Origin: Archangiaceae bacterium
Lineage (GTDB): Bacteria; Myxococcota; Myxococcia; Myxococcales; Myxococcaceae
Direction of reading: 5' to 3'
Length of the DNA stretch: 12,784 nucleotides
Assembly: GCA_043750125.1 (NCBI GenBank)
Contig: JAYVCD010000186.1
Coordinates: forward strand, 1-12,784
How positions within the stretch are numbered: the first letter of the stretch is position 1; each line of letters starts with the position of its first letter. The translations under genes and the position numbers were made by a program. Below the pieces are notes generated by a model. The model made no database searches, was not told the origin of the DNA, and worked only from the letters and a program-made list of their open reading frames with translations. Below, piece after piece: positions 2 to 12,784 of the stretch.

Positions 2-418
2 AGCGCGCTGGGGGCCAACGAGGCCTTCGTCGGTTTCTTCGGTTGGAACACCGCCTGGTCGGTCAATCTGGGCGGGAACGTTTCCTTTCAGGCGACCGAC
101 GAGCTGTCGTTCATCGTCGGCTACACCTACACCCGATCGTGGAAGTACTACGGCGAGGCGATTCGCCCGGACGAGACGCTTCCCAAGAACGCGACCTACG
201 GGTCGGGCCAGTCTGAGTACACCTCGACGGTGGTCGCGGTGAACTACCAGCTCAACGATCACTACGGAATCAGCCTCTCGGCTTCCAACGCTCTGCAGGC
301 CCCAAGGTCCCCGGGCGCCGGTGGCGCGGTCGGTCACTTCCGCTTCCCGTTCTTCGCGACCGACAACGCCGCGGAAAATACGACCAGCATCAACTTCACC
401 CTTTCTGCGGCCTACTGA
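2..418 (+). CDS. C-terminal part (5'-truncated by the window) of a probable outer-membrane beta-barrel protein
   Basis: The frame of ORF 230..418 is open back to position 2: SALGANEAFVGFFGWNTAWSVNLGGNVSFQATDELSFIVGYTYTRSW...STVVAVNYQLNDHYGISLSASN...FRFPFF...TSINFTLSAAY*. It shows alternating hydrophobic strands joined by short turns (SFQATDELSFIVGY, NYQLNDHYGISL). The last strand is amphipathic and ends in an aromatic Tyr, like a BAM beta-signal. Confidence 0.75.
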   Translation, partial: SALGANEAFVGFFGWNTAWSVNLGGNVSFQATDELSFIVGYTYTRSWKYYGEAIRPDETLPKNATYGSGQSEYTSTVVAVNYQLNDHYGISLSASNALQAPRSPGAGGAVGHFRFPFFATDNAAENTTSINFTLSAAY

Positions 419-437
419 AATGAAGAACACCAATACC

Positions 438-441
438 GGAG
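438..441 (+). promoter_or_regulatory. Shine-Dalgarno (GGAG) for the ATG at 447
   Basis: ccGGAGcccacATG, 5 nt spacing. This start gives a normal-length lipoprotein signal peptide. Confidence 0.6.
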
Positions 442-446
442 CCCAC

Positions 447-3400
447 ATGACTCAGACGTCCATCCGATGGCGTGCTTTGGCGGCAGCTGCCGCGACGCTC
501 CTTGCAGCGGCGTGCACCCAGAGCAATGGGGACATCAACCGGGTCCAGCCCAACGTCGCCAAGAAGGCGGACCTGCTGGACGGGGTGTGGTTCTTCCGCA
601 ACACGGTGACCTGGACTCCGGCTACCACCGGCTTCACCTACCCCGGTCAGACCGGCAACATCGAAAAGCTGGTCTTTGAAATCCAGGAAAAGAACCTGGT
701 CGGCTATCGCGCCTACCCGTACATCCTCGGGGCCGAGATCGATGTCGAAAAGACCTCGAAGGTCAGCGGCACCACCACCCGGTACTGCGACAAAGACGGG
801 AAGTGCACCGGCGGCAACCCGTACTACGGCGCGCCGATCGTCGCCTTCCCGATCGAAAGCCACTTCGACATCAAGCGCAACTACAACGTCTCGACCGGCG
901 AGCAGGGCAACGTGATCGCCGAGAACGCCAGCGACCGTCCCTGGAATCAGCGCGAGTACCTGCGCATCGACTGGTCGGCCAACCTGCTCAACGTCAACTC
1001 GGGCCTCAACTGGAACTCGATTCAAAATCCGTCGGGCGGCTCGGGCTCGGGCACCTGGATTCAGCCCAACGAGAAGGGCGAAGACCCCACCGACTGGCCC
1101 AGCCGCGAGTACGACGCGGCCGGGAAGCTCATCTACATGGACTACACCGGCCGCTACATGGCCAACCCGGACCTGTATTACTTCCGGGACTACGGCTACT
1201 ACCCGACCTGCTTCTTGCGCGGCGGCGAGCAGAACGACTGCAGCTCGAGCGAAATCCGAATGCGGATCTCGATGTCGAAAGTCGACCCGAACCACAGCCG
1301 CGATTACGAGCCGCTGCAGTACGGCAACGACCTGATGAGCAAGTTCGGGTACGCCCGCACCGAGCGCCTCAACTACGACCGCAAGTTCGGGTTCAACAAC
1401 TCGGCGGTCATTCGCCTCGCGAACCGCCACCGCAACTGGAAGCACTCGTTCGTGCCCAACGCGGACGGGAGCATCGACGAGAAGTCGGTTGCGATTCCGC
1501 TGGCCAACCGCGAGCTGCGGCCGATTCTCTATTACTTCACCCGCGCCGACTTGATGGGCGGTGAGCAGAACTACAACGAGTACATGGTTCCCGCTCGCCG
1601 CCTCGAGAAGGGCTGGGACAAGGCGTTTCGTCGCGCGGCCGCTGCAGCGCAAGGCAAGCAGGTCGACCTCAACGACGCGTCGGCGCAGGCGATGTACATC
1701 TGCGACAACCCGGTGAAGGTCGAAGGGGCCTGCGGCAAAGTGGGCTTCTCACCCAAGTTTGGCGACCTTCGCTACAGCTTCATGAACACCGTCGCCGAGC
1801 CGGTCGCCAACGGCCTGCTGGGCTACGGCCCGTCGTCGGCAGACCCTGAGACCGGAGAAATCATCTCGGGCAACGCGAACACGTACCTCTGGGGCATCGA
1901 CCTCTACGGCCGCCAGGTCCTCGACACCATCGACCTGCTGCTCGGCGAAACGTCGGTCAACAAATACATCAGTGGCGGGACCTTGAAGGAATACATCAAG
2001 AACAACCCTTCCTACTCGCTGGTCAGCGTCGCCAAGAATGGTCAGAGCCTTCAGGCTGAGCTCCAGGGCGTCCCGACCCGCACCGAGGAAAGCCGCGGTG
2101 CCTTCGAGCGTCCGACCGACCGCACCGTCTCGCTGCTCGAGACCCTGGCGGCCACCGGCGGGGTGCCCCGTTACAGCCAGGACTCGGCCCGCGTCGCCGC
2201 AGACGTGCTCGCCCAGAACCCGACCCTCGAGGCCGCAATCCTCGACAACCCGGACCTCGGCGACGACGTGGTTCACCTGCTGCCCGCCGAGCTTCAGGGC
2301 CGCGCGCTCACCGACAAGGACTTTCGCCGCAAGGCCTCGCGCAGCGTCCTCACCAACATCAAGGACAGCCAAGACTACCGTCAAAAGCGCATCGACTGGG
2401 CTTCGCGCAACAACGTCTACCTCGCCGAGTTCAACGACCGCACCATCATGGCGCTGGCGAACCGCGAGTCGGCCACCCGCACTGCCCGTATTGCCGAGCT
2501 GACCAACGCCGCCCACGTCAAGTGCGTCGACGCCGCTTCCTGCACCGCGGCGGAAGCCAAGCTCATCGCCAACGACGAAATCTCGAGCCGCATTCGCCAG
2601 TCGACCTGGCAGGCGACCAGCGAGCACGAAATCGGTCACACCTTCGGCCTGCGCCACAACTTTCAGGGCAGCTTCGATGCGATCAACTACCAGGACACCT
2701 ACTGGGAAATGCGCAAAGAGAGCCTGACAATCGCGCAGACCACCGCCGGTGTCGTCGAGCAGAAGGTTCCCCGGACCCCGGCGGACTTGAAGGCCACGTC
2801 GGACGGCACCATCGGCCAGCGCCTCGGAGGGATGTACGACCACGAGTACAGCTCGATCATGGACTACTCGGGAAAGATCAACGGCGACTGGAGCGGCGTC
2901 GGCAAGTACGACGAAGCGGCGATTCTGTTCGCCTACTCGGGCGACACCGCCCCGGGCTACGTCGAAGTGTTCGACGGCGCTCGCCGCGAGAAGCGGACCT
3001 TTGCAGGCTCGGACGGTGCCCAGGTGACGGTCACCGGCGCTGGCCTCGATCTGCCGATGGTCAACGCCCAGCACAAGAGCCCGGCGGTTCCCAACTACAC
3101 CGAGCGCTACCACTACACGATGGCTCCGCTGCACTTCGGAGACGGCGCCCAGGGCGCGAAGTTGACCGATGTCATCAACGACGGAATCGCGAAGTTCCAG
3201 AAGCGTTCGATTCGCAAGTACAGCGAAGTGAAGGCTGCCAATGACGAGTTGGCGGCGAAGCTCGAGGCGAACCCCGAGATGATCAAGGACCCGGACCTCT
3301 ACGCCGCGGCGATTGGCCCGAACCCGATTCTCGAGGTGCCGTACATGTTCTGTTCCGACGATCACGTCGGTGGCGTCCTGTCGTGCAACCGCTTCGATCG

Positions 3401-4850
3401 CGGGCCCGACTACTACGAGATGGCCCGCAAGGAACTCGAGGACAACTACAACTATTACTTCTCGAGCCACTTCAAGCGTGACCGCTTCAACTTCGGTCCC
3501 GGCGCCGCGCTCTACGGCACCGAGGGCGCCTTCCTCAACGTCGCCGACATCTACAAGAAGTGGGTGTTCGAGTTCTTCAAGAAGTCAGGCCAGCCGGGCC
3601 AGGAAGTCCGCAGCAGCTACCCGATCGACGCGACGATGCAGGACTTCTGGACGATGGCGGTGCTCGACGGCATCAACCAGCACCTCAACGTGATGGCGGT
3701 GCCGCCGACCGGAATGTTCATGTACCGCAACCGCCCCCAGGGCGCGCAATGGGACATCGCCAGCGAAGGCGATGACTACGACGCGCTCAACCCGAACGGT
3801 CGAAAGAAGATTCAGGACTACTACCGCAGCACCCGGGTCCGTTACCCCGCCTCGGGCTTTGCCGATCTGCCCCGAGGGCTCGGCCGCCGGATGTACAGCC
3901 GCTACGACTTCAAGAGCGGCTTTGGCTTCTTCAACCGAATGGAGGAAGCCGGTCACTACAACGACCAGATTGGCGCGATGATCGCCGCGGTTCTTCCCGA
4001 TGCGACGTTCCTGGGTGCTGACGAATCGGCCGACTTCCGCCGCTACAACATTCCCTACTACCTGGTCTTCAAGAAGGAGCTTACCGACACGTTCAGCGCG
4101 CTCTGGAGCAACAACGAAGAACTGGTTCGCCCGATCATGTACTTGAAGAAGAACGACCTCGGCAAAGTGCGCCAGGATCCGAACCCTGACGGCCAGTGCA
4201 ACTCGGGTTGCACCATCGCCGAGCAGGACAACAAGTGCGTGTGCGCGGGCCTGGAATGGAAGCGCTTCGTCAACGGAGCCGATCTGATCAGCGGCTTCAA
4301 CTACCCGCGCGAGACCGGGAAGGTCTGCGCTGCCGGCCAGACGGTGAACTGCCTGACTGCCGACCAGCTGCCCGCGCAGGCGAACATTCAGCTCACCTGG
4401 ACCAGCCGCATCTATTCGCTCTGGCTGGGCGAGGCGCTCTTCAAGGTCAACTACGACCTCGACTACGCCAAGGCCAACCAGGTCTTCAAGCTGGGCGGCG
4501 GTGAGCAGCAGACGGTCGCCGCCGGCTTCCACGCGGTCGAAGTGCAGGACATCACCACCGGCGCCCGCTATTCGGCGCTCGAGAAAAATGGTGCGCTGGC
4601 CAACTCGACTCCTGCGATTCGGGTGATCGGAATCGCCAAAGAGCAGCTGCTGATGGTGCAGGACCCGACCCGCTGCCCGCTGCCCCCCTACCTGGACTAC
4701 TTAGGCTACGCCTGCATGGGCGCCGACGAAGCCAACAACCCGGCACTCGTCTCCGAGCGCCGCCTGTACTGGATTGATATTTTCCGCAGCTCGCTTCGTG
4801 ACCTCGACCTGATGCGCGGCATGTACCAGTCGTTCGGGAAGGCGTTCTAA
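447..4850 (+). CDS. Giant lipoprotein zinc-dependent metalloprotease (metzincin, EcxA/DUF4953-like catalytic region), paralog 1, ~1467 aa
   Basis: Signal peptide MTQTSIRWRALAAAAATLLAAAC ends in a lipobox-like Cys23, with no Asp at +2. HEIGHTFGLRH is at 2625-2657 and the Met-turn SSIMDY at 2850-2867, followed by GKYDEAAILFAY. The sequence is colinear with the next gene. An alternative in-frame ATG is at 420. The ORF-track start at 321 overlaps the upstream gene and is unlikely. Confidence 0.88.
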   Translation: MTQTSIRWRALAAAAATLLAAACTQSNGDINRVQPNVAKKADLLDGVWFFRNTVTWTPATTGFTYPGQTGNIEKLVFEIQEKNLVGYRAYPYILGAEIDVEKTSKVSGTTTRYCDKDGKCTGGNPYYGAPIVAFPIESHFDIKRNYNVSTGEQGNVIAENASDRPWNQREYLRIDWSANLLNVNSGLNWNSIQNPSGGSGSGTWIQPNEKGEDPTDWPSREYDAAGKLIYMDYTGRYMANPDLYYFRDYGYYPTCFLRGGEQNDCSSSEIRMRISMSKVDPNHSRDYEPLQYGNDLMSKFGYARTERLNYDRKFGFNNSAVIRLANRHRNWKHSFVPNADGSIDEKSVAIPLANRELRPILYYFTRADLMGGEQNYNEYMVPARRLEKGWDKAFRRAAAAAQGKQVDLNDASAQAMYICDNPVKVEGACGKVGFSPKFGDLRYSFMNTVAEPVANGLLGYGPSSADPETGEIISGNANTYLWGIDLYGRQVLDTIDLLLGETSVNKYISGGTLKEYIKNNPSYSLVSVAKNGQSLQAELQGVPTRTEESRGAFERPTDRTVSLLETLAATGGVPRYSQDSARVAADVLAQNPTLEAAILDNPDLGDDVVHLLPAELQGRALTDKDFRRKASRSVLTNIKDSQDYRQKRIDWASRNNVYLAEFNDRTIMALANRESATRTARIAELTNAAHVKCVDAASCTAAEAKLIANDEISSRIRQSTWQATSEHEIGHTFGLRHNFQGSFDAINYQDTYWEMRKESLTIAQTTAGVVEQKVPRTPADLKATSDGTIGQRLGGMYDHEYSSIMDYSGKINGDWSGVGKYDEAAILFAYSGDTAPGYVEVFDGARREKRTFAGSDGAQVTVTGAGLDLPMVNAQHKSPAVPNYTERYHYTMAPLHFGDGAQGAKLTDVINDGIAKFQKRSIRKYSEVKAANDELAAKLEANPEMIKDPDLYAAAIGPNPILEVPYMFCSDDHVGGVLSCNRFDRGPDYYEMARKELEDNYNYYFSSHFKRDRFNFGPGAALYGTEGAFLNVADIYKKWVFEFFKKSGQPGQEVRSSYPIDATMQDFWTMAVLDGINQHLNVMAVPPTGMFMYRNRPQGAQWDIASEGDDYDALNPNGRKKIQDYYRSTRVRYPASGFADLPRGLGRRMYSRYDFKSGFGFFNRMEEAGHYNDQIGAMIAAVLPDATFLGADESADFRRYNIPYYLVFKKELTDTFSALWSNNEELVRPIMYLKKNDLGKVRQDPNPDGQCNSGCTIAEQDNKCVCAGLEWKRFVNGADLISGFNYPRETGKVCAAGQTVNCLTADQLPAQANIQLTWTSRIYSLWLGEALFKVNYDLDYAKANQVFKLGGGEQQTVAAGFHAVEVQDITTGARYSALEKNGALANSTPAIRVIGIAKEQLLMVQDPTRCPLPPYLDYLGYACMGADEANNPALVSERRLYWIDIFRSSLRDLDLMRGMYQSFGKAF
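2899..2923 (+). repeat. 25-bp exact repeat shared by the two protease paralogs (second copy 7248-7272)
   Basis: tcggcaagtacgacgaagcggcgat occurs at 2899-2923 and 7248-7272 (GKYDEAA codons). tcgatcatggactac occurs at 2853-2867 and 7202-7216. Confidence 0.85.
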
Positions 4851-4885
4851 ACATGACCACCGCAAAGACTCTCGGAACCCATTCT

Positions 4886-7800
4886 ATGAAGACCTACTCT
4901 GCGTCGCTGTTGGTGGCCGTAGCGGTGGTGGTGTCGGGCTGCAGCACGCCCGAGCGCATCGACCGCACCTTGCCGAACTACTCCAAGAAGTCCGACCTGC
5001 TGAGCGGCAGTTGGTACATCAAGGAGTCGGTGGTTGATGTGCCCAAGACGTCGGGGGCGACGACCGTCGGGTACGGGGGGAACCTCGAGAAGATTCGTTG
5101 GGAAATCCACGAGGACCTGCTCGTCGGCTATCGGACCTACGAGTTCATTCCCGGCATCGACCCGAAGGTCGACCCGGAAAAATCGAAGATCGGCGCAGTG
5201 ATCACCAAAGATGGCCGCCCCTACAAAGGCGCCCCGGTCTTTGGCTACAAGATCCTCAGTCACTTCGACCGTCAGCGCGGCTACAACGCGGCGACCGGCG
5301 AGCTGAACAACGTCCTCGCCGAGGACTCGTTGGATCGCCCTTGGTACGAGCGCGAGTTCATGCGCATCGACTGGCGCAATAACCAGATCAACAACGTCAG
5401 CAACTGCACCAACGCCGAAGGGTACAGCGCGTCGTGTGTGAACGGCCCCGCGAAGTACTTCCGTTCGGTGACAGCCGAAGACCAGAACAAGCACGACAAC
5501 GCCTGGTTCGAGGTGCGCAACACGGCAGGCGAGCTGACCTACTTCGACTTCACCACCGAGGTGATCGCGGATCCTCCGACCGTCTACTACGAGGGCTACG
5601 GCAACGTTCCGGTCTGTGCCATCAACCCCACCACCACGATGGATTGCGAGAGCGCGCTGGTTCGGATTCGCACCTCGGTGAAGAAGGTCGATGAAGAGCG
5701 GGTTTCGCAGTACGAGCCGCTGGTCTACGGCGAAAAGTTGATGAAGAAGTTCGGGTTCTTCCGTCAGGAAATGCTCTCGTACAACAAGGGCTACCAGTTC
5801 ACCGAGTCCGGTCGCCTGCTGTACGCGATGCGACACAACATCTGGGACGGGAAGACCAAGGGCGACGACGGCAAGACAGTTCCGGTCACCAAGCGCGCGT
5901 TGCGCCCGATCGTCTACTTCATGACCGAAAACACCCCCGTTGATCTCTTCCCTGCCGCCAAGGGCCTCGAGTCCAGCTGGGATAACGCCTTTCGGCGCGC
6001 GGTCGCGGTGCCTCGAGGCATCGAAGCGAGCGCGGTTCCGCAGATGTTCTACGTCTGCCAGAGCCCGGTTCAGAAAGGAGCCCCCGAGGCCTGCGGAAAG
6101 GAAGGAACCTACGCACGCATCGGCGATATTCGGTTCAACCTGATTCCCTACGTCGAGCAGATCACCGGAGGCCTGTTGGGCCTCGGGCCGTCCTCGATGG
6201 ATCCCGAAACAGGCGAAGTGGTTCAGGCCGTTGCGAACGTCTATGGGCCGGGCATGGACACCTGGACGGGCGCCGCCACTCAGGTCATCGACGTGCTCAA
6301 CAAAGAGGTTTCACTGTCCGATGTGATCGTGGGCAAGGACATCAAGGATTACGTCTTCGACAACCTCAATGCGACCGACGCCCGCCGCCCCGCCAACGGG
6401 CCCTGGAATTCGACCCAGCCGCTGATCTCAGAATCGACCCGCCCGATGGGCAGCTTCTTCAGCCCCCAGGGTGAGTTCGCGACCAAGCTCGAGGTCTACC
6501 GTCGCCAAGGGCACCTGCCGCTGCGGATGCAGGACCGCAAGGCCGTCGTCGAGAAGTTGATCGAGAACAACCCCGCGCTCGAGAGCGAGCTCATCAATCT
6601 GCCTGAGGTTCGTTCGGCGGTGATGGCCAGCATTCCGAGCAAGGCCTTCCAGGCCAAGCTGGAAAGCGACGGCAGCTTCTACCGACATGTCGCGTTGCAG
6701 ATGATGCTCGGAACCGACCCCGTATCGATGGGGAAGAAAGCGCGTCTCAGCCGGCCCACGCCTGAAGTCGGTTGTGAGTACGGCCTCGAGTTCTTCGACG
6801 ACGACTACCTCGCCATCGCGAAGGCGAAGCTCAAGGTCTACAACGCGAAGCTCGCCCAGTACCAGGCAGCCGGTTTCGACACCTGCGCCGACAAGGCCAA
6901 GTGCACGCTCGCCGAAGCCAAGCCGTTGGCCAAACGCGAAGTGTGGAATGACCTTCGCCGCGACGCCTACCGTTCGATTTCTGAGCATGAAGTCGGTCAC
7001 ACCCTGGGCCTGATGCACAACTTCATCGCCTCGGCCGACGCTCTCAACTACAAAAATGGCTACTGGGAACAGCGGAAGGACACGATCGGCGTGATGGTCG
7101 GCGGCAAGCGCGTTCTGCCGATTACTCCCCAGAACCTTCTCGATGCCTCGAAGCCGAACCAGAAGCAGATCGACGATGGGATGTACGAGCTGACCTACTC
7201 GTCGATCATGGACTACGGCGCGCGAATGAACTCGAGCATCCGTGGCATCGGCAAGTACGACGAAGCGGCGATCCTCTTCGGCTACGCCGGCGGCTTCGAG
7301 CCCGGCTGGGTCGAAGTGTTCAACGATCTGCGCACCGACTACGACGTGACCAACTACGGCGTCGATACCGACAACATGGCGAAGAAGCTGCTCATTCGAG
7401 GCGCCCACGTGGAAATCCCGCTCGCGAACGTCGAGCACTACACGCCGGTGTCGAGCTTCATCACCGACCGCTTCCACTACACCTCGCTGCCCTTCATGTT
7501 CGCGGACAAGAAGACCTTCGAAGAGAAGGGGTTCGAGCCTGCGCTGGACCAGGGCTTGAAGCGAATGCAGAACCGCAGCTTTCGCAAGTGGAGCGAGATG
7601 GAGCCGATCTACGCCCGCATCGAGAAAGAGCTGAAGAACTTCAACCTTTCGGCGGGCGGTTTCATCGAGCCCGACTGGAACAAGGCGCGCGACGTGATCA
7701 AGGTCGCCGCTCGCAACATGCCGGTCGAAGTCCCCTACATGTTCTGCTCTGACTACGAAGTCGGCGCCAACGTGATGTGCAACCGCAACGATCAGGGGGC

Positions 7801-9136
7801 CGACATCTACGAGATGACCAGCAAGTGGGTCGAGCGCTTCGATACCTCTTACGCGTGGTCCAACTTCCGCCGCGATCGCTACAACTTCAGCGTCAACTCG
7901 GCGCTCGCCGGGAAGAACCGGTACATGTCGAACCTTCCCAACGTCTACCAGCAGTGGCTTTTCAACATTTTCTTCGCCCAGAGCGCCTACCAGCTCACCG
8001 CGGAGCAAATGGACGAGTTCTTTGGCGTCGGAGATCCGGTCTGGCAGAACTATTGGACGATGGCGGTCACCGACTCGACCAACCTGCTGCTGCGGCAATT
8101 GACCACTCCGTCAGCCGGCTACCACGGCAAGACGGCCGCCGGGAACTGGGTGTACATGAGCGCCAACAAGGCGAACAACGGCCGCTTATCGACCGGAGCC
8201 GAGACGGCCTTCATCACCAACGCGAAGACTCCAGGCGGGGGCGGCTACGTCGACGTGGCCTACGTGCCGCGCGGCGTCGGCCGAAGCATGTATTCGAACT
8301 ACGACACCTTCGGGTACGACGGCTTCACCCGCGTTACCGAAGTGGGTCACTTCTGGGACCAGCGGCTGGCACTCTCGGCGCTCACCAGCTCCGAGACCAA
8401 CTTCCTCGGCGTCGACCGTGGCTCAGACGCGCTGCGCTACTCGCTGCCGTACTACATCACCTTCAATCGCGAGCTCGGGCCGCTGTTCCGCGATGTGTGG
8501 GCTGAGAACAAGTCGGGCCTCAGCTCGTCGCTCGGGAAGCTCGCCGACGGCACCGCGGTGGTGATTCCGGCCGTTCTGCTTCGCGCCGACCGTTACATTC
8601 TCAACTTCAATTACCCGCCTCCGGCCCAGATTCCGGTCGACGGCTCGGGGAATGCGTTGGCGATGGAATCGGTCGAGTCGAGCCCGGCGTGGGGCACGCG
8701 TTTTTGGACCCAGGTCCTGGGAATGGCGTACTTCACCGACAACTCGAACCAGGAATTCGCAAGCTTCAACCAGGTCTACAAGCTGGGCTCGGGTGAGGCG
8801 CTGCAGCCGGCCGACAACTACACGGTGGTGAGCTTCCCTGACCCCACCAACGTGGGGGTCGCGACCGAGCTGGCCAAGCAGCTTCCGGATCTCGTCGGCG
8901 GGTACATCTACGCGGGCCTGAAGCAGACCACCGGGTCGATCTACGTGGGCACCCCCGCGGCGGTGATGATGATTGACCGCGCCAACCTGCAGTCGGCGAA
9001 GTACGTCAGCGCCAAGACCACCGGGACCCGGGTCGATGGGCTCACGGCAGCCGAGTGGGAAGGCAAGCTGCGTGAGACGGTGCGCAGCCTCGAAATCATG
9101 CGCGGGCTGTACGGCATCTTCGGCAGCACCCGCTAA
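4886..9136 (+). CDS. Giant lipoprotein zinc-dependent metalloprotease (metzincin), paralog 2, ~1416 aa
   Basis: MKTYSASLLVAVAVVVSGC has a canonical lipobox VSGC (Cys19) and +2 Ser. HEVGHTLGLMH is at 6986-7018 and SSIMDY at 7199-7216, followed by GKYDEAAILFGY. An alternative in-frame ATG at 4853 lies 2 nt after the paralog 1 stop, so the start is uncertain. Confidence 0.88.
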   Translation: MKTYSASLLVAVAVVVSGCSTPERIDRTLPNYSKKSDLLSGSWYIKESVVDVPKTSGATTVGYGGNLEKIRWEIHEDLLVGYRTYEFIPGIDPKVDPEKSKIGAVITKDGRPYKGAPVFGYKILSHFDRQRGYNAATGELNNVLAEDSLDRPWYEREFMRIDWRNNQINNVSNCTNAEGYSASCVNGPAKYFRSVTAEDQNKHDNAWFEVRNTAGELTYFDFTTEVIADPPTVYYEGYGNVPVCAINPTTTMDCESALVRIRTSVKKVDEERVSQYEPLVYGEKLMKKFGFFRQEMLSYNKGYQFTESGRLLYAMRHNIWDGKTKGDDGKTVPVTKRALRPIVYFMTENTPVDLFPAAKGLESSWDNAFRRAVAVPRGIEASAVPQMFYVCQSPVQKGAPEACGKEGTYARIGDIRFNLIPYVEQITGGLLGLGPSSMDPETGEVVQAVANVYGPGMDTWTGAATQVIDVLNKEVSLSDVIVGKDIKDYVFDNLNATDARRPANGPWNSTQPLISESTRPMGSFFSPQGEFATKLEVYRRQGHLPLRMQDRKAVVEKLIENNPALESELINLPEVRSAVMASIPSKAFQAKLESDGSFYRHVALQMMLGTDPVSMGKKARLSRPTPEVGCEYGLEFFDDDYLAIAKAKLKVYNAKLAQYQAAGFDTCADKAKCTLAEAKPLAKREVWNDLRRDAYRSISEHEVGHTLGLMHNFIASADALNYKNGYWEQRKDTIGVMVGGKRVLPITPQNLLDASKPNQKQIDDGMYELTYSSIMDYGARMNSSIRGIGKYDEAAILFGYAGGFEPGWVEVFNDLRTDYDVTNYGVDTDNMAKKLLIRGAHVEIPLANVEHYTPVSSFITDRFHYTSLPFMFADKKTFEEKGFEPALDQGLKRMQNRSFRKWSEMEPIYARIEKELKNFNLSAGGFIEPDWNKARDVIKVAARNMPVEVPYMFCSDYEVGANVMCNRNDQGADIYEMTSKWVERFDTSYAWSNFRRDRYNFSVNSALAGKNRYMSNLPNVYQQWLFNIFFAQSAYQLTAEQMDEFFGVGDPVWQNYWTMAVTDSTNLLLRQLTTPSAGYHGKTAAGNWVYMSANKANNGRLSTGAETAFITNAKTPGGGGYVDVAYVPRGVGRSMYSNYDTFGYDGFTRVTEVGHFWDQRLALSALTSSETNFLGVDRGSDALRYSLPYYITFNRELGPLFRDVWAENKSGLSSSLGKLADGTAVVIPAVLLRADRYILNFNYPPPAQIPVDGSGNALAMESVESSPAWGTRFWTQVLGMAYFTDNSNQEFASFNQVYKLGSGEALQPADNYTVVSFPDPTNVGVATELAKQLPDLVGGYIYAGLKQTTGSIYVGTPAAVMMIDRANLQSAKYVSAKTTGTRVDGLTAAEWEGKLRETVRSLEIMRGLYGIFGSTR

Positions 9137-9157
9137 CGAAGGGGCACCCCTCGATTT

Positions 9158-9211
9158 GAAGAGACCGACGCCCGGATGCCTTCTGGAAGGGTATCCGGGC
9201 GTTGTCTTTTC
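9158..9211 (+). terminator. Long stem-loop, probable intrinsic terminator or mRNA 3' stabiliser of the protease operon
   Basis: cgacgcccggatgcc (9166-9180) pairs with ggtatccgggcgttg (9190-9204): 15 bp including two G-U pairs that form only in the + strand RNA. The stem can extend by gaagaga/tcttttc, and it is followed by tctttt. Confidence 0.75.
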
Positions 9212-9223
9212 TGAAGGCCCGCC

Positions 9224-9784
9224 ATGACTTCCATTTGCGCCCGCTGTCCCCGCGTTCTCGGCACCAGCTGCTGTGAGGTGAAGAGCCATGAGCAACTGGC
9301 GACGCTGACCTGGGCCGACGCAGACCGCCTTCAAGAGGCGACCGGGAAGAGCGTGACGAGCTTCACCGAATTCGAATGGTTGGACGAAGGGGAAGCCGCA
9401 CGGTGGTCGCAGCTTCATCCTCAATGGGACCAGTACTTCGGGCCTTCGACGCGACGGCTGACGCTCAAGCGCAAAGACGGAGCGTGCGTCTTCCACGGGC
9501 CCCAGGGCTGCGGGTTGACCGCCGAGCAAAGGCCGACCGCGTGTCGGTTGTATCCGTTCGAGGTGCGGGGCCAGGGGGAATGGGGACTGCAGGTGGATCG
9601 CTTCGGCTCGGTCGACGACGCGGTGAAGTCCGGCGAGCACGCGTGCCTCGCGGTGGAAGAATCAGACTCGTTCGATGCGCTCTGGGAGGCGTTCGGAACG
9701 AGCCGGGAAGCGCTGGAAGCGTTGGAACAACGCCTGCGCGAGGAAGCCCGCGAGCACGGACGACGCGAACAGCGCAGATGTTGA
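9224..9784 (+). CDS. YkgJ-family (CxxCxxCC) cysteine-cluster protein, putative Zn/Fe-S binding, 186 aa
   Basis: N-terminal CARCPRVLGTSCC and a later CVFHGPQGCGLTAEQRPTACRLYPF, matching the CxF...C...RPxxCRxYPF signature. GAAGG at 9213-9217 is a plausible RBS. Confidence 0.85.
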   Translation: MTSICARCPRVLGTSCCEVKSHEQLATLTWADADRLQEATGKSVTSFTEFEWLDEGEAARWSQLHPQWDQYFGPSTRRLTLKRKDGACVFHGPQGCGLTAEQRPTACRLYPFEVRGQGEWGLQVDRFGSVDDAVKSGEHACLAVEESDSFDALWEAFGTSREALEALEQRLREEAREHGRREQRRC

Positions 9785-9833: not shown

Positions 9834-10607
9834 GTGTTCGCGCCGTACCAACTCGAGCTGTTCAACTCGCGCAAAGCGGACGCCGCCCCTTCGCCCAAAG
9901 TGCGCCGGTCGGTGCCCGCGCCCGCGAAGGAAGAGGTGCTCCCGCGCGCAGATGCGCTGGCGCGCCGAATCGCTGCAGACCTGGGCGCCCGCGTTCGGCT
10001 GGTGGTGAACGACAACCGGTCGACGATGGTCAGCTACCAACGGGAAGCGGGCGAGCTGACCTTGCGCCTTCACCACATGTTCCTCGATGCGCCCGAGGAC
10101 GTGGTGCAGGCGCTGGCCGATTATGCAGGTCGCGGTCGTCGTCGGGCGGGCGAGCTGATCGACGCCTACGTTCACCACAGTGAAGAAAAGATTCGAGCCG
10201 CCAGCCGCAAGCCCGAAGCGCTGAAGTCCGCCGGCAAGTGCTTCGACCTTCAAGACGTCTTTGCCCGCTTGAACCAGAACCACTTTCAAGGCGGCATCCG
10301 GGCGAGCATCGGCTGGGGTCGCGGGGTCCACCGCCGGCGGCGAAAGTCGATTCGCCTGGGCGTCTATGACCATCAGGCGCGCGAGATTCGAGTCCACCCG
10401 GCGCTGGACAAGCCCGACGTTCCGCTGTTCTTCGTCGAATACATCGTCTTCCACGAGATGCTGCACCAGCTGTTTCCGAGCGCACGCCACGACGGGCGCC
10501 ACGTTCATCACCCGCGCGCCTTCAAGGATCGCGAGAAGGCCTTTCCGTTGTACGACGCTGCGCTGCACTGGGAAAAACAGCACCTCTCGAAGCTGCTCGG
10601 GCGCTGA
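9834..10607 (+). CDS. SprT-like / YgjP(DUF45)-like HExxH zinc metallohydrolase, ~257 aa
   Basis: LQDVFARLNQNHF..IGWGR...LGVY...IRVHPALD.PDVPLFFVEYIVFHEMLH (HEMLH at 10452-10466), followed by HHPRAF. The start is reassigned to GTG 9834 behind AGAGGG (9824-9829), because the ORF-track start 9675 overlaps the YkgJ gene. No signal peptide. Confidence 0.75.
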   Translation: MFAPYQLELFNSRKADAAPSPKVRRSVPAPAKEEVLPRADALARRIAADLGARVRLVVNDNRSTMVSYQREAGELTLRLHHMFLDAPEDVVQALADYAGRGRRRAGELIDAYVHHSEEKIRAASRKPEALKSAGKCFDLQDVFARLNQNHFQGGIRASIGWGRGVHRRRRKSIRLGVYDHQAREIRVHPALDKPDVPLFFVEYIVFHEMLHQLFPSARHDGRHVHHPRAFKDREKAFPLYDAALHWEKQHLSKLLGR

Positions 10608-10611
10608 CCGG

Positions 10612-11211
10612 CTACCAGGTCGGGCGCTTGCGCAGGAAGGCCCGGCCGCGCGGCGAGAGGTCGTAGCCGACTTCAAAGCTCTCGGTGAGGCCCAGCTTCT
10701 TCAACTTCCGCACGTCGATCTTGAACGGCTCGGTCTCTCGTCCGATCGACGCAGCGAGCTTCGAGGCGGCGATCTTCGGGCGTCGGGCGATGAGCCGCAA
10801 AGTGGCGCGGGTCCACGGGCCCTTCGCGTCCATGCGGGCCAGCTTGCGGCACAGCTCCTCGACAGCCGCGCGGTCGAGCTCGGTGTCGAGCGCCAGGGGG
10901 ACCCGGTCGCCGTCGCTTCCGTGGTGAAGGTCGACTTTGAACACCGGGGTCTGCGCGGTCAGTGGCCCCTTCGCGACCGGTCGGGCGTAGTCGATCAGCT
11001 CGGTGAGGTCGACGAAGCCGGCGCGCTTCGCGTCGTCGTCGGTGAGGCCGCCAAGGGGAATGCGGGAAATCGAATCGACCTCGACGACTCCGATCGGATG
11101 AACGCGGTAGCGCCCTCCGGCCTTGACGTGAGGCTTGTCCCACAGCCGCACCGTGAGCGTGACCGAGCCGTCGACGAGGCCTTGATGAAAACGTTTCTTG
11201 AAAAGGAGCAC
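10612..11211 (-). CDS. ASCH-like domain protein with C-terminal winged helix-turn-helix, ~199 aa
   Basis: GTG start at 11211: MLLFKKRFHQGLVDGSVTLTVRLWDKPHVKAGGRY...LTDDDAKRAGF (ASCH-like pattern). It continues PWTRATLRLIARRPKIAASKLAASIGRETEPFKIDVRKLKKLGLTESFEVGYDLSPRG (wHTH-like, wing YxLSPRG). This is the C-terminal 199 aa of track ORF 10612..12702. Stop TAG at 10612-10614. Confidence 0.75.
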   Translation of the reverse strand: MLLFKKRFHQGLVDGSVTLTVRLWDKPHVKAGGRYRVHPIGVVEVDSISRIPLGGLTDDDAKRAGFVDLTELIDYARPVAKGPLTAQTPVFKVDLHHGSDGDRVPLALDTELDRAAVEELCRKLARMDAKGPWTRATLRLIARRPKIAASKLAASIGRETEPFKIDVRKLKKLGLTESFEVGYDLSPRGRAFLRKRPTW

Positions 11212-11237
11212 TTGGGGACTTACCTGATAAGCCCAAG
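11211..11237. promoter_or_regulatory. Imperfect inverted repeat filling the divergent ASCH-wHTH/pyk gap (candidate operator or RNA hairpin)
   Basis: CTTGGG-ga-CTTA-cctga-TAAG-CCCAAG. 11211-11216 pairs with 11232-11237, and 11219-11222 pairs with 11228-11231. Confidence 0.45.
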
Positions 11238-11241
11238 GGCA

Positions 11242-12672
11242 ATGAGACGCGCAAAAATCGTTTGTACGCTGGGTCCTGCCAGCAGCAGCCAGGAGATGTT
11301 GGAGCGGTTGTTGGCGGCGGGAATGGACGTGGTTCGCTTGAATTTTTCTCACGGGACCCACGCGCAACACAAAGACCTGATCGAGAAGATTCGCGCGGCC
11401 TCGCTGAAGGTGCGCAAGGGCGTCGGCATTCTGGGAGATCTGCAGGGGCCGAAGATTCGAACCGGCCGCCTGGAAAAGGGCGAGATTCAGTTGGTCGAGG
11501 GAACTGAGTTCTTCATCACCACCGACGAGTCGCAGCCGGGGACTGAAAAAATCGTCTCGACCACCTACGGCCACCTCGCGGCGGACGTGAACGTCGGCGA
11601 CCGGATTTTGCTCGACGACGGTCTGCTCGAGCTGAAAGTGCTGTCGACGGACAAGCAGAAGCTGGTGCGGACCGAAGTGGTGCACGGGGGCCCCCTGCGC
11701 AACAACAAGGGCATCAACCTGCCCGGCGTCGCTTTGCGTGCGGACGCACTGACTCCGAAGGACAAAGAAGACCTGATTTTCGGAATCAACAACGGCGTCG
11801 ATTACATCGGACTGTCGTTCGTGCGCACGCCCCAGGATTTGGATCTGACCCGCGCGGCGATGCTCGAGGCAGGCCGGATAGTTCCGATCATCGCCAAGCT
11901 TGAGAAGCCCGAGGCGATCGCCCGGCTCGACGCGATTCTCGACAAGACCGATGGGGTGATGGTCGCCCGAGGAGACCTGGGCGTCGAGATTCCGCCCGAA
12001 GAGGTTCCCGCGATTCAAAAAGACATCATTCGTCGGGCCAACGCGCGGGCGCTGCCGGTGATTGTCGCGACCCAGATGCTCAACTCGATGATCGAGCATC
12101 CACGCCCGACCCGCGCCGAAGCCTCGGACGTGGCGAACGCGATCTTCGATGGTACCGACGCGGTGATGCTCTCGGGCGAAACCGCGAGCGGGAAGTACCC
12201 GATCGAGTCGGTCGAGATGATGGACCGCATCGTGCTGGCGGCCGAATCGGCGATGCGACAGAGCTTTCCGCGCATTGGCAGCGGCGAGCCGATGAAGATT
12301 CCGGCCGATTTTCCGGACGTGACCTGCGGAGTCGCCTGCCGAGCGGCCCGCGAGTGCGGAGCGAGCCTGATTGTCGGCTTCACGCTCTCGGGCACCACCG
12401 CGCGGCTGCTGTCGCACTACCGCCCCCAGGTGCCGATCATCGCCTTCAGTCCAAACCAAGAAGTGCGCCGCCGCCTCTCGCTGTTGTGGGGCGTGGTGCC
12501 GCGGGTGCTCGAGCCGATGCAGGAGACCGAAGCGATGGTTCGACGCGTGGAGGAAGAGCTGCTCGCGCGCGGGCTGGCTCAAAAGGGCGAGCGGATCGTG
12601 ATTGTGTTTGGCGCGCCCGTCGGACAACCCGGGAAGATCAATTCCCTGCGGCTGCACACGATTTCGATGTAG
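11242..12672 (+). CDS. pyk: Pyruvate kinase, 476 aa
   Basis: MRRAKIVCTLGPAS, RLNFSHG, DLQGPKIRTG, KGINLPG, IIAKLEKPEA, DGVMVARGDLGVEIP, ATQMLNSMIEHPRPTRAEASDVANAIFDGTDAVMLSGETASGKYP. The true start is ATG 11242 inside track ORF 10366..12672. Confidence 0.98.
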   Translation: MRRAKIVCTLGPASSSQEMLERLLAAGMDVVRLNFSHGTHAQHKDLIEKIRAASLKVRKGVGILGDLQGPKIRTGRLEKGEIQLVEGTEFFITTDESQPGTEKIVSTTYGHLAADVNVGDRILLDDGLLELKVLSTDKQKLVRTEVVHGGPLRNNKGINLPGVALRADALTPKDKEDLIFGINNGVDYIGLSFVRTPQDLDLTRAAMLEAGRIVPIIAKLEKPEAIARLDAILDKTDGVMVARGDLGVEIPPEEVPAIQKDIIRRANARALPVIVATQMLNSMIEHPRPTRAEASDVANAIFDGTDAVMLSGETASGKYPIESVEMMDRIVLAAESAMRQSFPRIGSGEPMKIPADFPDVTCGVACRAARECGASLIVGFTLSGTTARLLSHYRPQVPIIAFSPNQEVRRRLSLLWGVVPRVLEPMQETEAMVRRVEEELLARGLAQKGERIVIVFGAPVGQPGKINSLRLHTISM

Positions 12673-12679
12673 TCGAAGC

Positions 12680-12784
12680 TCAAGGCCGGGGCTTGAGCGC
12701 ACGCCCCGGCACGTCGGACTCGACGAAGATTTTGAACAGCTCTGTGTCCAGTTGACCCTTGTCGGACTCGCTTTTGAGAATGTC
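12680..12784 (-). CDS. C-terminal 34 aa of a gene entering from the right edge, probably an HD-GYP-type phosphodiesterase
   Basis: The reverse strand reads DILKSESDKGQLDTELFKIFVESDVPGRALKPRP* (TGA at 12680-12682). This resembles the IL..E...G.LD..L...F tail that ends HD-GYP domains. The catalytic motifs would lie outside the window. Confidence 0.55.
   Translation of the reverse strand, partial: DILKSESDKGQLDTELFKIFVESDVPGRALKPRP

Follow-up and report, generated by a model that had tools for sequence, protein, structure and literature searches.

The window analysed here was the complete contig C186 (12,784 bp) of an assembly from an Archangiaceae bacterium (6.2 Mb, 460 contigs, 89% complete). 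Three co-oriented genes on the forward strand occupied positions 2-9136: the 3' end of a gene for a putative outer-membrane beta-barrel protein, and two genes, here called met1 and met2, encoding giant putative metzincin lipoproteins. This three-gene unit is tentatively interpreted as one copy of an outer-membrane module conserved in Myxococcota, in which a 12-stranded barrel would be combined with one or two dedicated lipid-anchored metzincins that it may export or anchor. The features of the unit were as follows:

2-418, + strand: barrel gene, 3' end (138 codons plus stop), covering the predicted strands beta8-beta12; C-terminus ...FTLSAAY, identical to the end of the full-length protein P0134
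420-4850, + strand: met1, putative giant metzincin lipoprotein, 1476 residues (ATG at 420, alternative ATG at 447, TAA at 4848-4850)
513-515, + strand: codon of the predicted met1 lipobox Cys32 (LLAAAC, Thr at +2); Cys invariant in 56/56 sequences
2625-2657, + strand: met1 zinc motif HEIGHTFGLRH (H736, E737, H740, G743, H746), with the Met-turn Met814 at 2859-2861
4853-9136, + strand: met2, putative giant metzincin lipoprotein, 1427 residues (ATG at 4853, alternative ATG at 4886), paralog of met1
4940-4942, + strand: codon of the predicted met2 lipobox Cys30 (VVSGC, Ser at +2), in a signal peptide with lipobox
6986-7018, + strand: met2 zinc motif HEVGHTLGLMH (H712, E713, H716, H722), with the Met-turn Met786 at 7208-7210
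9166-9204, + strand: intrinsic-terminator-like hairpin (17-bp stem, 5-nt loop), then TCTTTTCT, closing the three-gene unit

The barrel gene was truncated by the 5' end of the window, its fragment ending in ...INFTLSAAY with the stop codon TGA at 416-418. Only 1 nt separated this stop from the met1 ATG, and 2 nt the met1 TAA from the met2 ATG; given these gaps, the three genes are translationally coupled. The second in-frame ATG of met1 and of met2 was 27-33 nt past the first. Ten of the stem pairs of the hairpin were G-C and a T-rich tail lay behind it; two terminator-like sites were found, against 0.3 expected from shuffles. All these particulars agree with the first-pass annotation of the stretch, made from the sequence alone, which had described three co-oriented genes with gaps of 1-2 nt and a closing hairpin.

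The barrel protein and the giant metzincins

The same assembly carried the missing 5' part of the barrel gene at the beginning of contig C8 (C8:17-694, minus strand). Contigs C8 (reverse strand) and C186 abut within this gene, with about 1 nt missing, and the full locus can be read across both. The full-length product, P0134 (362 residues), was recovered by searching a database with its sister-genome orthologue, and its last 138 residues matched the window fragment exactly. P0134 comprised a Sec-type signal peptide ending in ALA, a Pro/Ala/Ser/Thr-rich stretch, a short helix and a beta-rich remainder. In the model it formed a closed, antiparallel outer-membrane barrel whose two sides differed, one bearing short turns and the other long loops, and the chain ended in an aromatic residue. 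The first-pass annotation, which had read a beta-barrel in the end of this gene and proposed retrieval of the complete upstream gene, was borne out in this respect.

Its sequence places the barrel in no described family. Neither Pfam nor NCBIfam had a family for the window fragment or P0134, and the protein P0004 was also without a Pfam match. NCBIfam was empty for all three proteins of the operon, and sequence searches against solved structures gave no match for the barrel, met1 or met2. Seventy members of the barrel family showed only scattered sub-threshold Pfam matches (DUF2490 in 6, OMP_b-brl in 4 and Phenol_MetA_deg in 1), and the 30 nearest Atlas clusters were all unnamed Myxococcota proteins. 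A profile search of 1.84 billion representatives retrieved at least 2112 barrel clusters (50% identity) at E<=1e-3, 712 of them at E<=1e-30; the top 150 were 236-513 residues long and are therefore stand-alone barrels. At six distant loci the N-terminus always consisted of a signal peptide and a low-complexity Pro/Ala/Glu/Lys-rich linker (about 20 to 200 residues) leading into the barrel, and no folded periplasmic domain was evident in these six N-termini. The most conserved barrel positions (E114, T116, D119, N130, P159, S164 and P340), among them those of a Pro-Thr-(Thr/Ser) motif at the beta5-beta6 loop, were located inside the long loops or at their base. In the usual barrel topology the long loops point outward, and the conserved loops of the model are presumed to do the same.

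The met1 and met2 proteins were 33% identical over their full length. Both are predicted lipoproteins, on account of their signal peptide and invariant lipobox Cys: the lipobox sequences of the three paralogs (met1, met2 and a third from elsewhere in the genome, see below) were LLAAAC, VVSGC and LLASC, and the Cys column was kept in 56/56 aligned homologues. The H, E, H and H of HExxHxxGxxH were unchanged in the 56 sequences, the Met-turn read SSIMDY in both giants, and M814 and Y816 of met1 were invariant in the alignments. By motif and modelled fold both proteins are metzincins, and they are candidate zinc endopeptidases. The earlier description of two paralogous lipidated metzincins with complete zinc motif and Met-turn was thus confirmed in lipoboxes, motifs and paralogy alike.

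An AlphaFold2 model of met2 residues 31-1230, built on a 46-sequence alignment, was confident (predicted local distance difference test score, pLDDT, 80.6; predicted template modelling score, pTM, 0.85). It contained a beta-rich domain at about residues 10-330 (model numbering, as in what follows; fold-search matches spanned 9-250), a metzincin domain interrupted by a helical insert of about 200 residues (about 455-650) and a helical domain from about 840 on. This arrangement supports the proposal that the catalytic core is only a minority of the chain. Matches to metzincin catalytic domains of known structure were modest and were stretched over residues 294-785, because the helical insert interrupts the domain. 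A Foldseek search with the whole met2 model gave no match at E<=1e-3, and no convincing structural relative was found for its flanking domains. In met1, all 18 Cys residues besides that of the lipobox were located 2-13 residues from a neighbouring Cys, four of the pair columns being conserved in at least 79% of sequences. In both giants only a short tether (about 8-15 residues) joined the lipid Cys to the first folded domain. NCBI labels of homologues went no further than “zinc-dependent metalloprotease”, and every named one came from a metagenome-assembled Myxococcota genome.

Linkage of barrel and protease in Myxococcota

The order barrel-met1-met2 was kept in 5/5 loci from other genomes (four other genera and one congener). 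Close loci were retrieved by protease alignment, as the best 80 stretches (59 distinct loci) of 364 relatives, all of them close met1 orthologues. Forty-seven of these loci were informative, having either the met1 5' end plus upstream DNA or a barrel fragment at the contig end; the other 12 were cut by contig ends. The barrel was immediately upstream on the same strand in 44 of the 47, inverted about 600 nt upstream in two, and lacking in one. When 401 Myxococcota genomes were searched by profile, at least 155 had the barrel under a stricter filter. Twenty distant loci were then considered, from 18 genomes of 14 other families, and 18 of them adjoined a giant metzincin: the protease was downstream on the same strand in 16, one locus held a divergent pair, one had the protease before the barrel, and in two the barrel was alone. 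Two giant metzincins stood behind the barrel at three distant loci of other families (L129, L132 and L135). Many loci had one barrel and one protease, and two proteases per barrel are therefore not the rule.

A second module was present in the same genome, on contig C182 (minus strand; loci L031 and L002):

C182:13233-14255, - strand: 341-residue barrel homologue with a signal peptide
C182:8482-13233, - strand: third-paralog metzincin, a putative lipoprotein of 1584 residues with HEMGHSIGLRHNF

The stop codon of the first of these genes overlapped the start codon of the second (ATGA). The 341-residue protein was remotely homologous to the barrel (hhalign probability 99.1%, E 7e-19, 270 columns), and the third-paralog protease was directly downstream of this second barrel type in 12/12 loci, including loci of other families of the order.

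In trees built from 76 barrels and from the N-domains of 131 proteases, the mean distance was 2.6 between met1 and met2 versus 3.9-4.1 to the third paralog, and the two barrel types were 3.9 apart. Barrel type agreed with the type of the neighbouring protease in 16 of 17 distant loci. Patristic distances of barrels and proteases were correlated (r 0.88 over 73 pairs), a figure which is inflated by relatedness. Genera of the same family with numerous complete genomes were also found without the barrel (0/21 genomes in g12, 0/32 in g34, 0/10 in g29 and 0/12 in g15, barrel counts being a floor), and the protease, sought in five near-complete barrel-less genomes, was absent from all five, two of them holding only 25-residue matches to the zinc motif. 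Carrier genomes had 1-3 diverged copies of the module. The second module, the adjacency, the match of types and the joint absence together indicate that barrel and protease duplicate, diverge and disappear as a unit. The pairing is ancient, and the functional tie between barrel and protease that had been proposed at first is well supported by gene neighbourhood (synteny over 14 families, a second pair in the genome, co-diversifying types, joint absence): the proteins very probably act together in some way.

Three loci differed in the placing of the barrel gene. In L057 and L085, both from metagenome-assembled genomes labelled Archangium, and in L122, it was inverted, about 600 nt upstream of the proteases and divergent from them, and still adjacent. 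On C182, a frame of 686 codons without a Pfam match was present just upstream of the second module (C182:14397-16457, minus strand; L031:6398-8458). It contained an internal Gly-Cys-Gly-Cys, a hydrophobic stretch and an Arg-rich run, a part which we take to resemble a C-terminal sorting tag. Beyond it the same frame continued into a signal-like segment and then a beta-rich tail, and the whole may represent two genes or a fusion.

Further upstream of the barrel gene, contig C8 carried an NFACT-family gene and an ATP-dependent ligase gene. Downstream of the hairpin, the window held:

9224-9784, + strand: CxxCxxCC-type (YkgJ-like) gene, a weak match under the Pfam cut-off
ending at 10607, + strand: SprT-like gene, a weak match under the Pfam cut-off
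about 11.23 kb to 12672, + strand: pyruvate kinase gene

A long frame at 10612-12702, antisense over the pyruvate kinase gene and with a weak ASCH match, is probably not a gene.

Several of these results count against a dedicated module. The flanks (NFACT, ligase, pyruvate kinase) were also conserved within the family; synteny within it is therefore partly plain vertical inheritance, and the argument rests on the distant loci, a sample hand-picked from the listed matches. At locus L052, the 5 kb upstream of the met1-met2 pair held no barrel; met1 there borders immediately on the NFACT gene, and the barrel was therefore lost or moved in that genome. The two orphan barrels among the distant loci, L128 and L137, had an Hsp70-PilZ gene and a response-regulator GGDEF-EAL gene as neighbours and no protease. 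Taken with L052, these two of 20 distant barrels mean that the adjacency is not absolute. The exceptions and the conserved flanks are what would be expected if barrel and proteases were functionally unrelated neighbours in an inherited gene order. This explanation is highly improbable: the adjacency persists over 14 families with differing flanks and still holds where the barrel is inverted (L057, L085 and L122), two diverged barrel types each have their own protease type, start and stop codons are coupled (1-2 nt gaps here, the ATGA overlap in the C182 module), and barrel and protease are jointly absent (5/5 genomes).

Comparison with known systems

By its model, the barrel falls structurally in the COG4313/FapF class. 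FapF is the outer-membrane transporter of the Pseudomonas functional amyloid (PDB 5o65, 5o67 and 5o68), and PMC5557850 describes PTG motifs at the beta5-beta6 loop as conserved in FapF and COG4313. The Pro-Thr-(Thr/Ser) of the present barrel resembles this PTG, a resemblance that is no proof of kinship. A 12-stranded barrel, a preceding helix and a periplasmic extension, all features of FapF, were present in the barrel model. The sequences, however, were just 9-10% identical, and no FapA-E genes were present here, the neighbours being the NFACT gene, the metzincins and the YkgJ-like gene. The N-terminal extension was low-complexity and Pro/Ala/Glu/Lys-rich, with no evident coiled coil, and the cargo would be lipoproteins of 1400-1600 residues, whereas that of FapF consists of small amyloid subunits.

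The fold of the COG4313/PF13557 (Phenol_MetA_deg) channels, such as Pput2725 (PDB 4rl8), was likewise found in the barrel model; these channels differ in being importers without a lipoprotein partner. PF13557 did not match P0134, matched 1 of 70 family members (E 0.0012) and had no match anywhere in genome G000; true PF13557 genes were found elsewhere in related genomes. An hhalign comparison of the barrel with PF13557 genes, a shallow test with four sequences only, gave a probability of 0.5%.

In having a dedicated outer-membrane barrel encoded beside the large (lipo)protein that it would display at the surface, the module resembles Slam (type 11 secretion) and two-partner secretion (TpsB) systems, by analogy and not by membership. 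The barrel had no DUF560, tetratricopeptide repeat (TPR), POTRA or any other Pfam match, its N-terminus was low-complexity, and its model had 12 strands; Slam and TpsB barrels exceed 12 strands. The barrel is not a Slam, TpsB or TonB-type partner.

Of the Pfam families proposed for the proteases in the first-pass annotation, one was detected in part and two were not. DUF4953 (PF16313, “Met-zincin”) scored 28.7 bits for met1 and 41.2 bits for met2, above its gathering cut-off of 24.2, and 22.9 bits, below it, for the third paralog; of the 316 profile positions only 8-36 aligned, to a segment of about 25 residues at the zinc motif. DUF5117 (PF17148) and DUF5118 (PF17162) had no match at E<=0.01 in met1 or met2. 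The nearest Atlas clusters of the giants carry DUF4953, and by score met1 and met2 may be placed as fringe members of that family. The usual DUF5117-DUF4953-DUF5118 metalloproteases have about 840 residues; the giants are about 600 residues longer, are lipidated by a predicted lipobox and have a catalytic domain split, in the model, by the helical insert, which also sets them apart from the known metzincin structures (matrix metalloproteinases, serralysin, astacin and EcxA). A literature search found no paper on a barrel-metzincin system, none on DUF4953 and none relevant on DUF5117, DUF5118, PF16313 or EcxA. Together with the lack of a Pfam or NCBIfam family for the barrel, this agrees with the earlier remark that the system is not a characterised one.

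Possible roles of the module

The explanation we favour, as a possible one, is that the barrel exports the proteases to the cell surface or anchors them there. The proteases would first pass through Sec export and lipidation and would then rely on their own barrel to reach the surface or to stay there, the chain threading through or beside the barrel in a largely unfolded state, in the manner in which FapF and autotransporter barrels treat their cargo. They would then rest on the conserved outer loops of the barrel and digest extracellular protein, and met1 and met2 would be an old tandem duplication using one common barrel. This reading is favoured because barrel and protease types co-diversify, because the barrel class is FapF/autotransporter-like, because the barrel has a periplasmic tail and a pre-barrel helix, because its conservation is concentrated on the presumed outer loops, and because the Cys pairs of met1 are exclusively short-range. 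Export by 12-stranded autotransporters is described in PMC3546941 as tolerating short-range Cys pairs only.

Other points tell against export. The closest solved structure is that of an importer (COG4313), and the fold alone therefore gives export no advantage. The barrel model was of moderate confidence (12 strands; pLDDT 60.5, pTM 0.62), the lumen of a 12-stranded barrel is too narrow for a folded 160-kDa protein, and the operon holds no energy-source or chaperone gene. The short lipid tether of the proteases would also fit a periplasm-facing protein. A complex prediction for met1 residues 32-380 and barrel residues 40-362, made for one domain pair and without controls, scored 0.01 against a mark of 0.32, which weighs neither for nor against an interface. 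As a doubtful extension of the export reading, the barrel would be the first representative of a new export route, a stand-alone FapF/autotransporter-like 12-stranded translocator and anchor for lipoproteins of 150-170 kDa.

Alternatively, the unit may be a feeding module, with lipoprotein proteases that cut protein at the envelope and a barrel that takes up the resulting peptides or hydrophobic products as a pore, a small-scale analogue of surface hydrolases that feed SusC/D. We consider this somewhat unlikely. A pore for small products need not diversify alongside a protease, yet the types agreed in 16/17 loci; to our knowledge, a long Pro/Ala/Glu/Lys-rich periplasmic tail with a pre-barrel helix is not a feature of import porins of this fold (the COG4313 channel, KdgM-type porins); and the proteases would still need another route to the surface. 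The proteases might instead stay at the outer membrane's inner leaflet and form a periplasm-facing complex, with the barrel as scaffold, regulator or substrate gate in envelope remodelling or quality control, as with BepA at the BAM complex. The short tether and the operon without an export factor are compatible with such a complex, as are the lipobox +2 residues (Thr, Ser and Ala; in Myxococcus, retention in the inner membrane is signalled by Lys at +2), and paired Cys residues suit any extracytoplasmic location. Envelope housekeeping is, however, usually universal in a clade, while the module was not found in genera g12, g34, g29 and g15 of the same family; its 1-3 diverged copies per genome look accessory and niche-related; and the strongest conservation of the barrel was on the predicted outer loops. 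A periplasm-facing complex is therefore judged unlikely.

Partnerships between barrels and lipoproteins are known as a kind; what is new here is the pairing of an unnamed barrel family with giant zinc proteases whose own family is unstudied. Surface display of lipoproteins outside Proteobacteria and Bacteroidota is largely unexplained, and the module offers a compact, phylum-wide case that is directly open to genetics: a single barrel goes with one or two cargo-like partners, in matched paralogous sets within one genome. Should the barrel import the products of proteolysis, the module would be a new protein-feeding unit of predatory or saprophytic soil and sediment bacteria. If it exports or anchors the proteases, as we favour, the FapF/autotransporter principle would extend to separate lipoprotein cargo, and a new export route of this type would explain the surface lipoproteins of some phyla without Slam.

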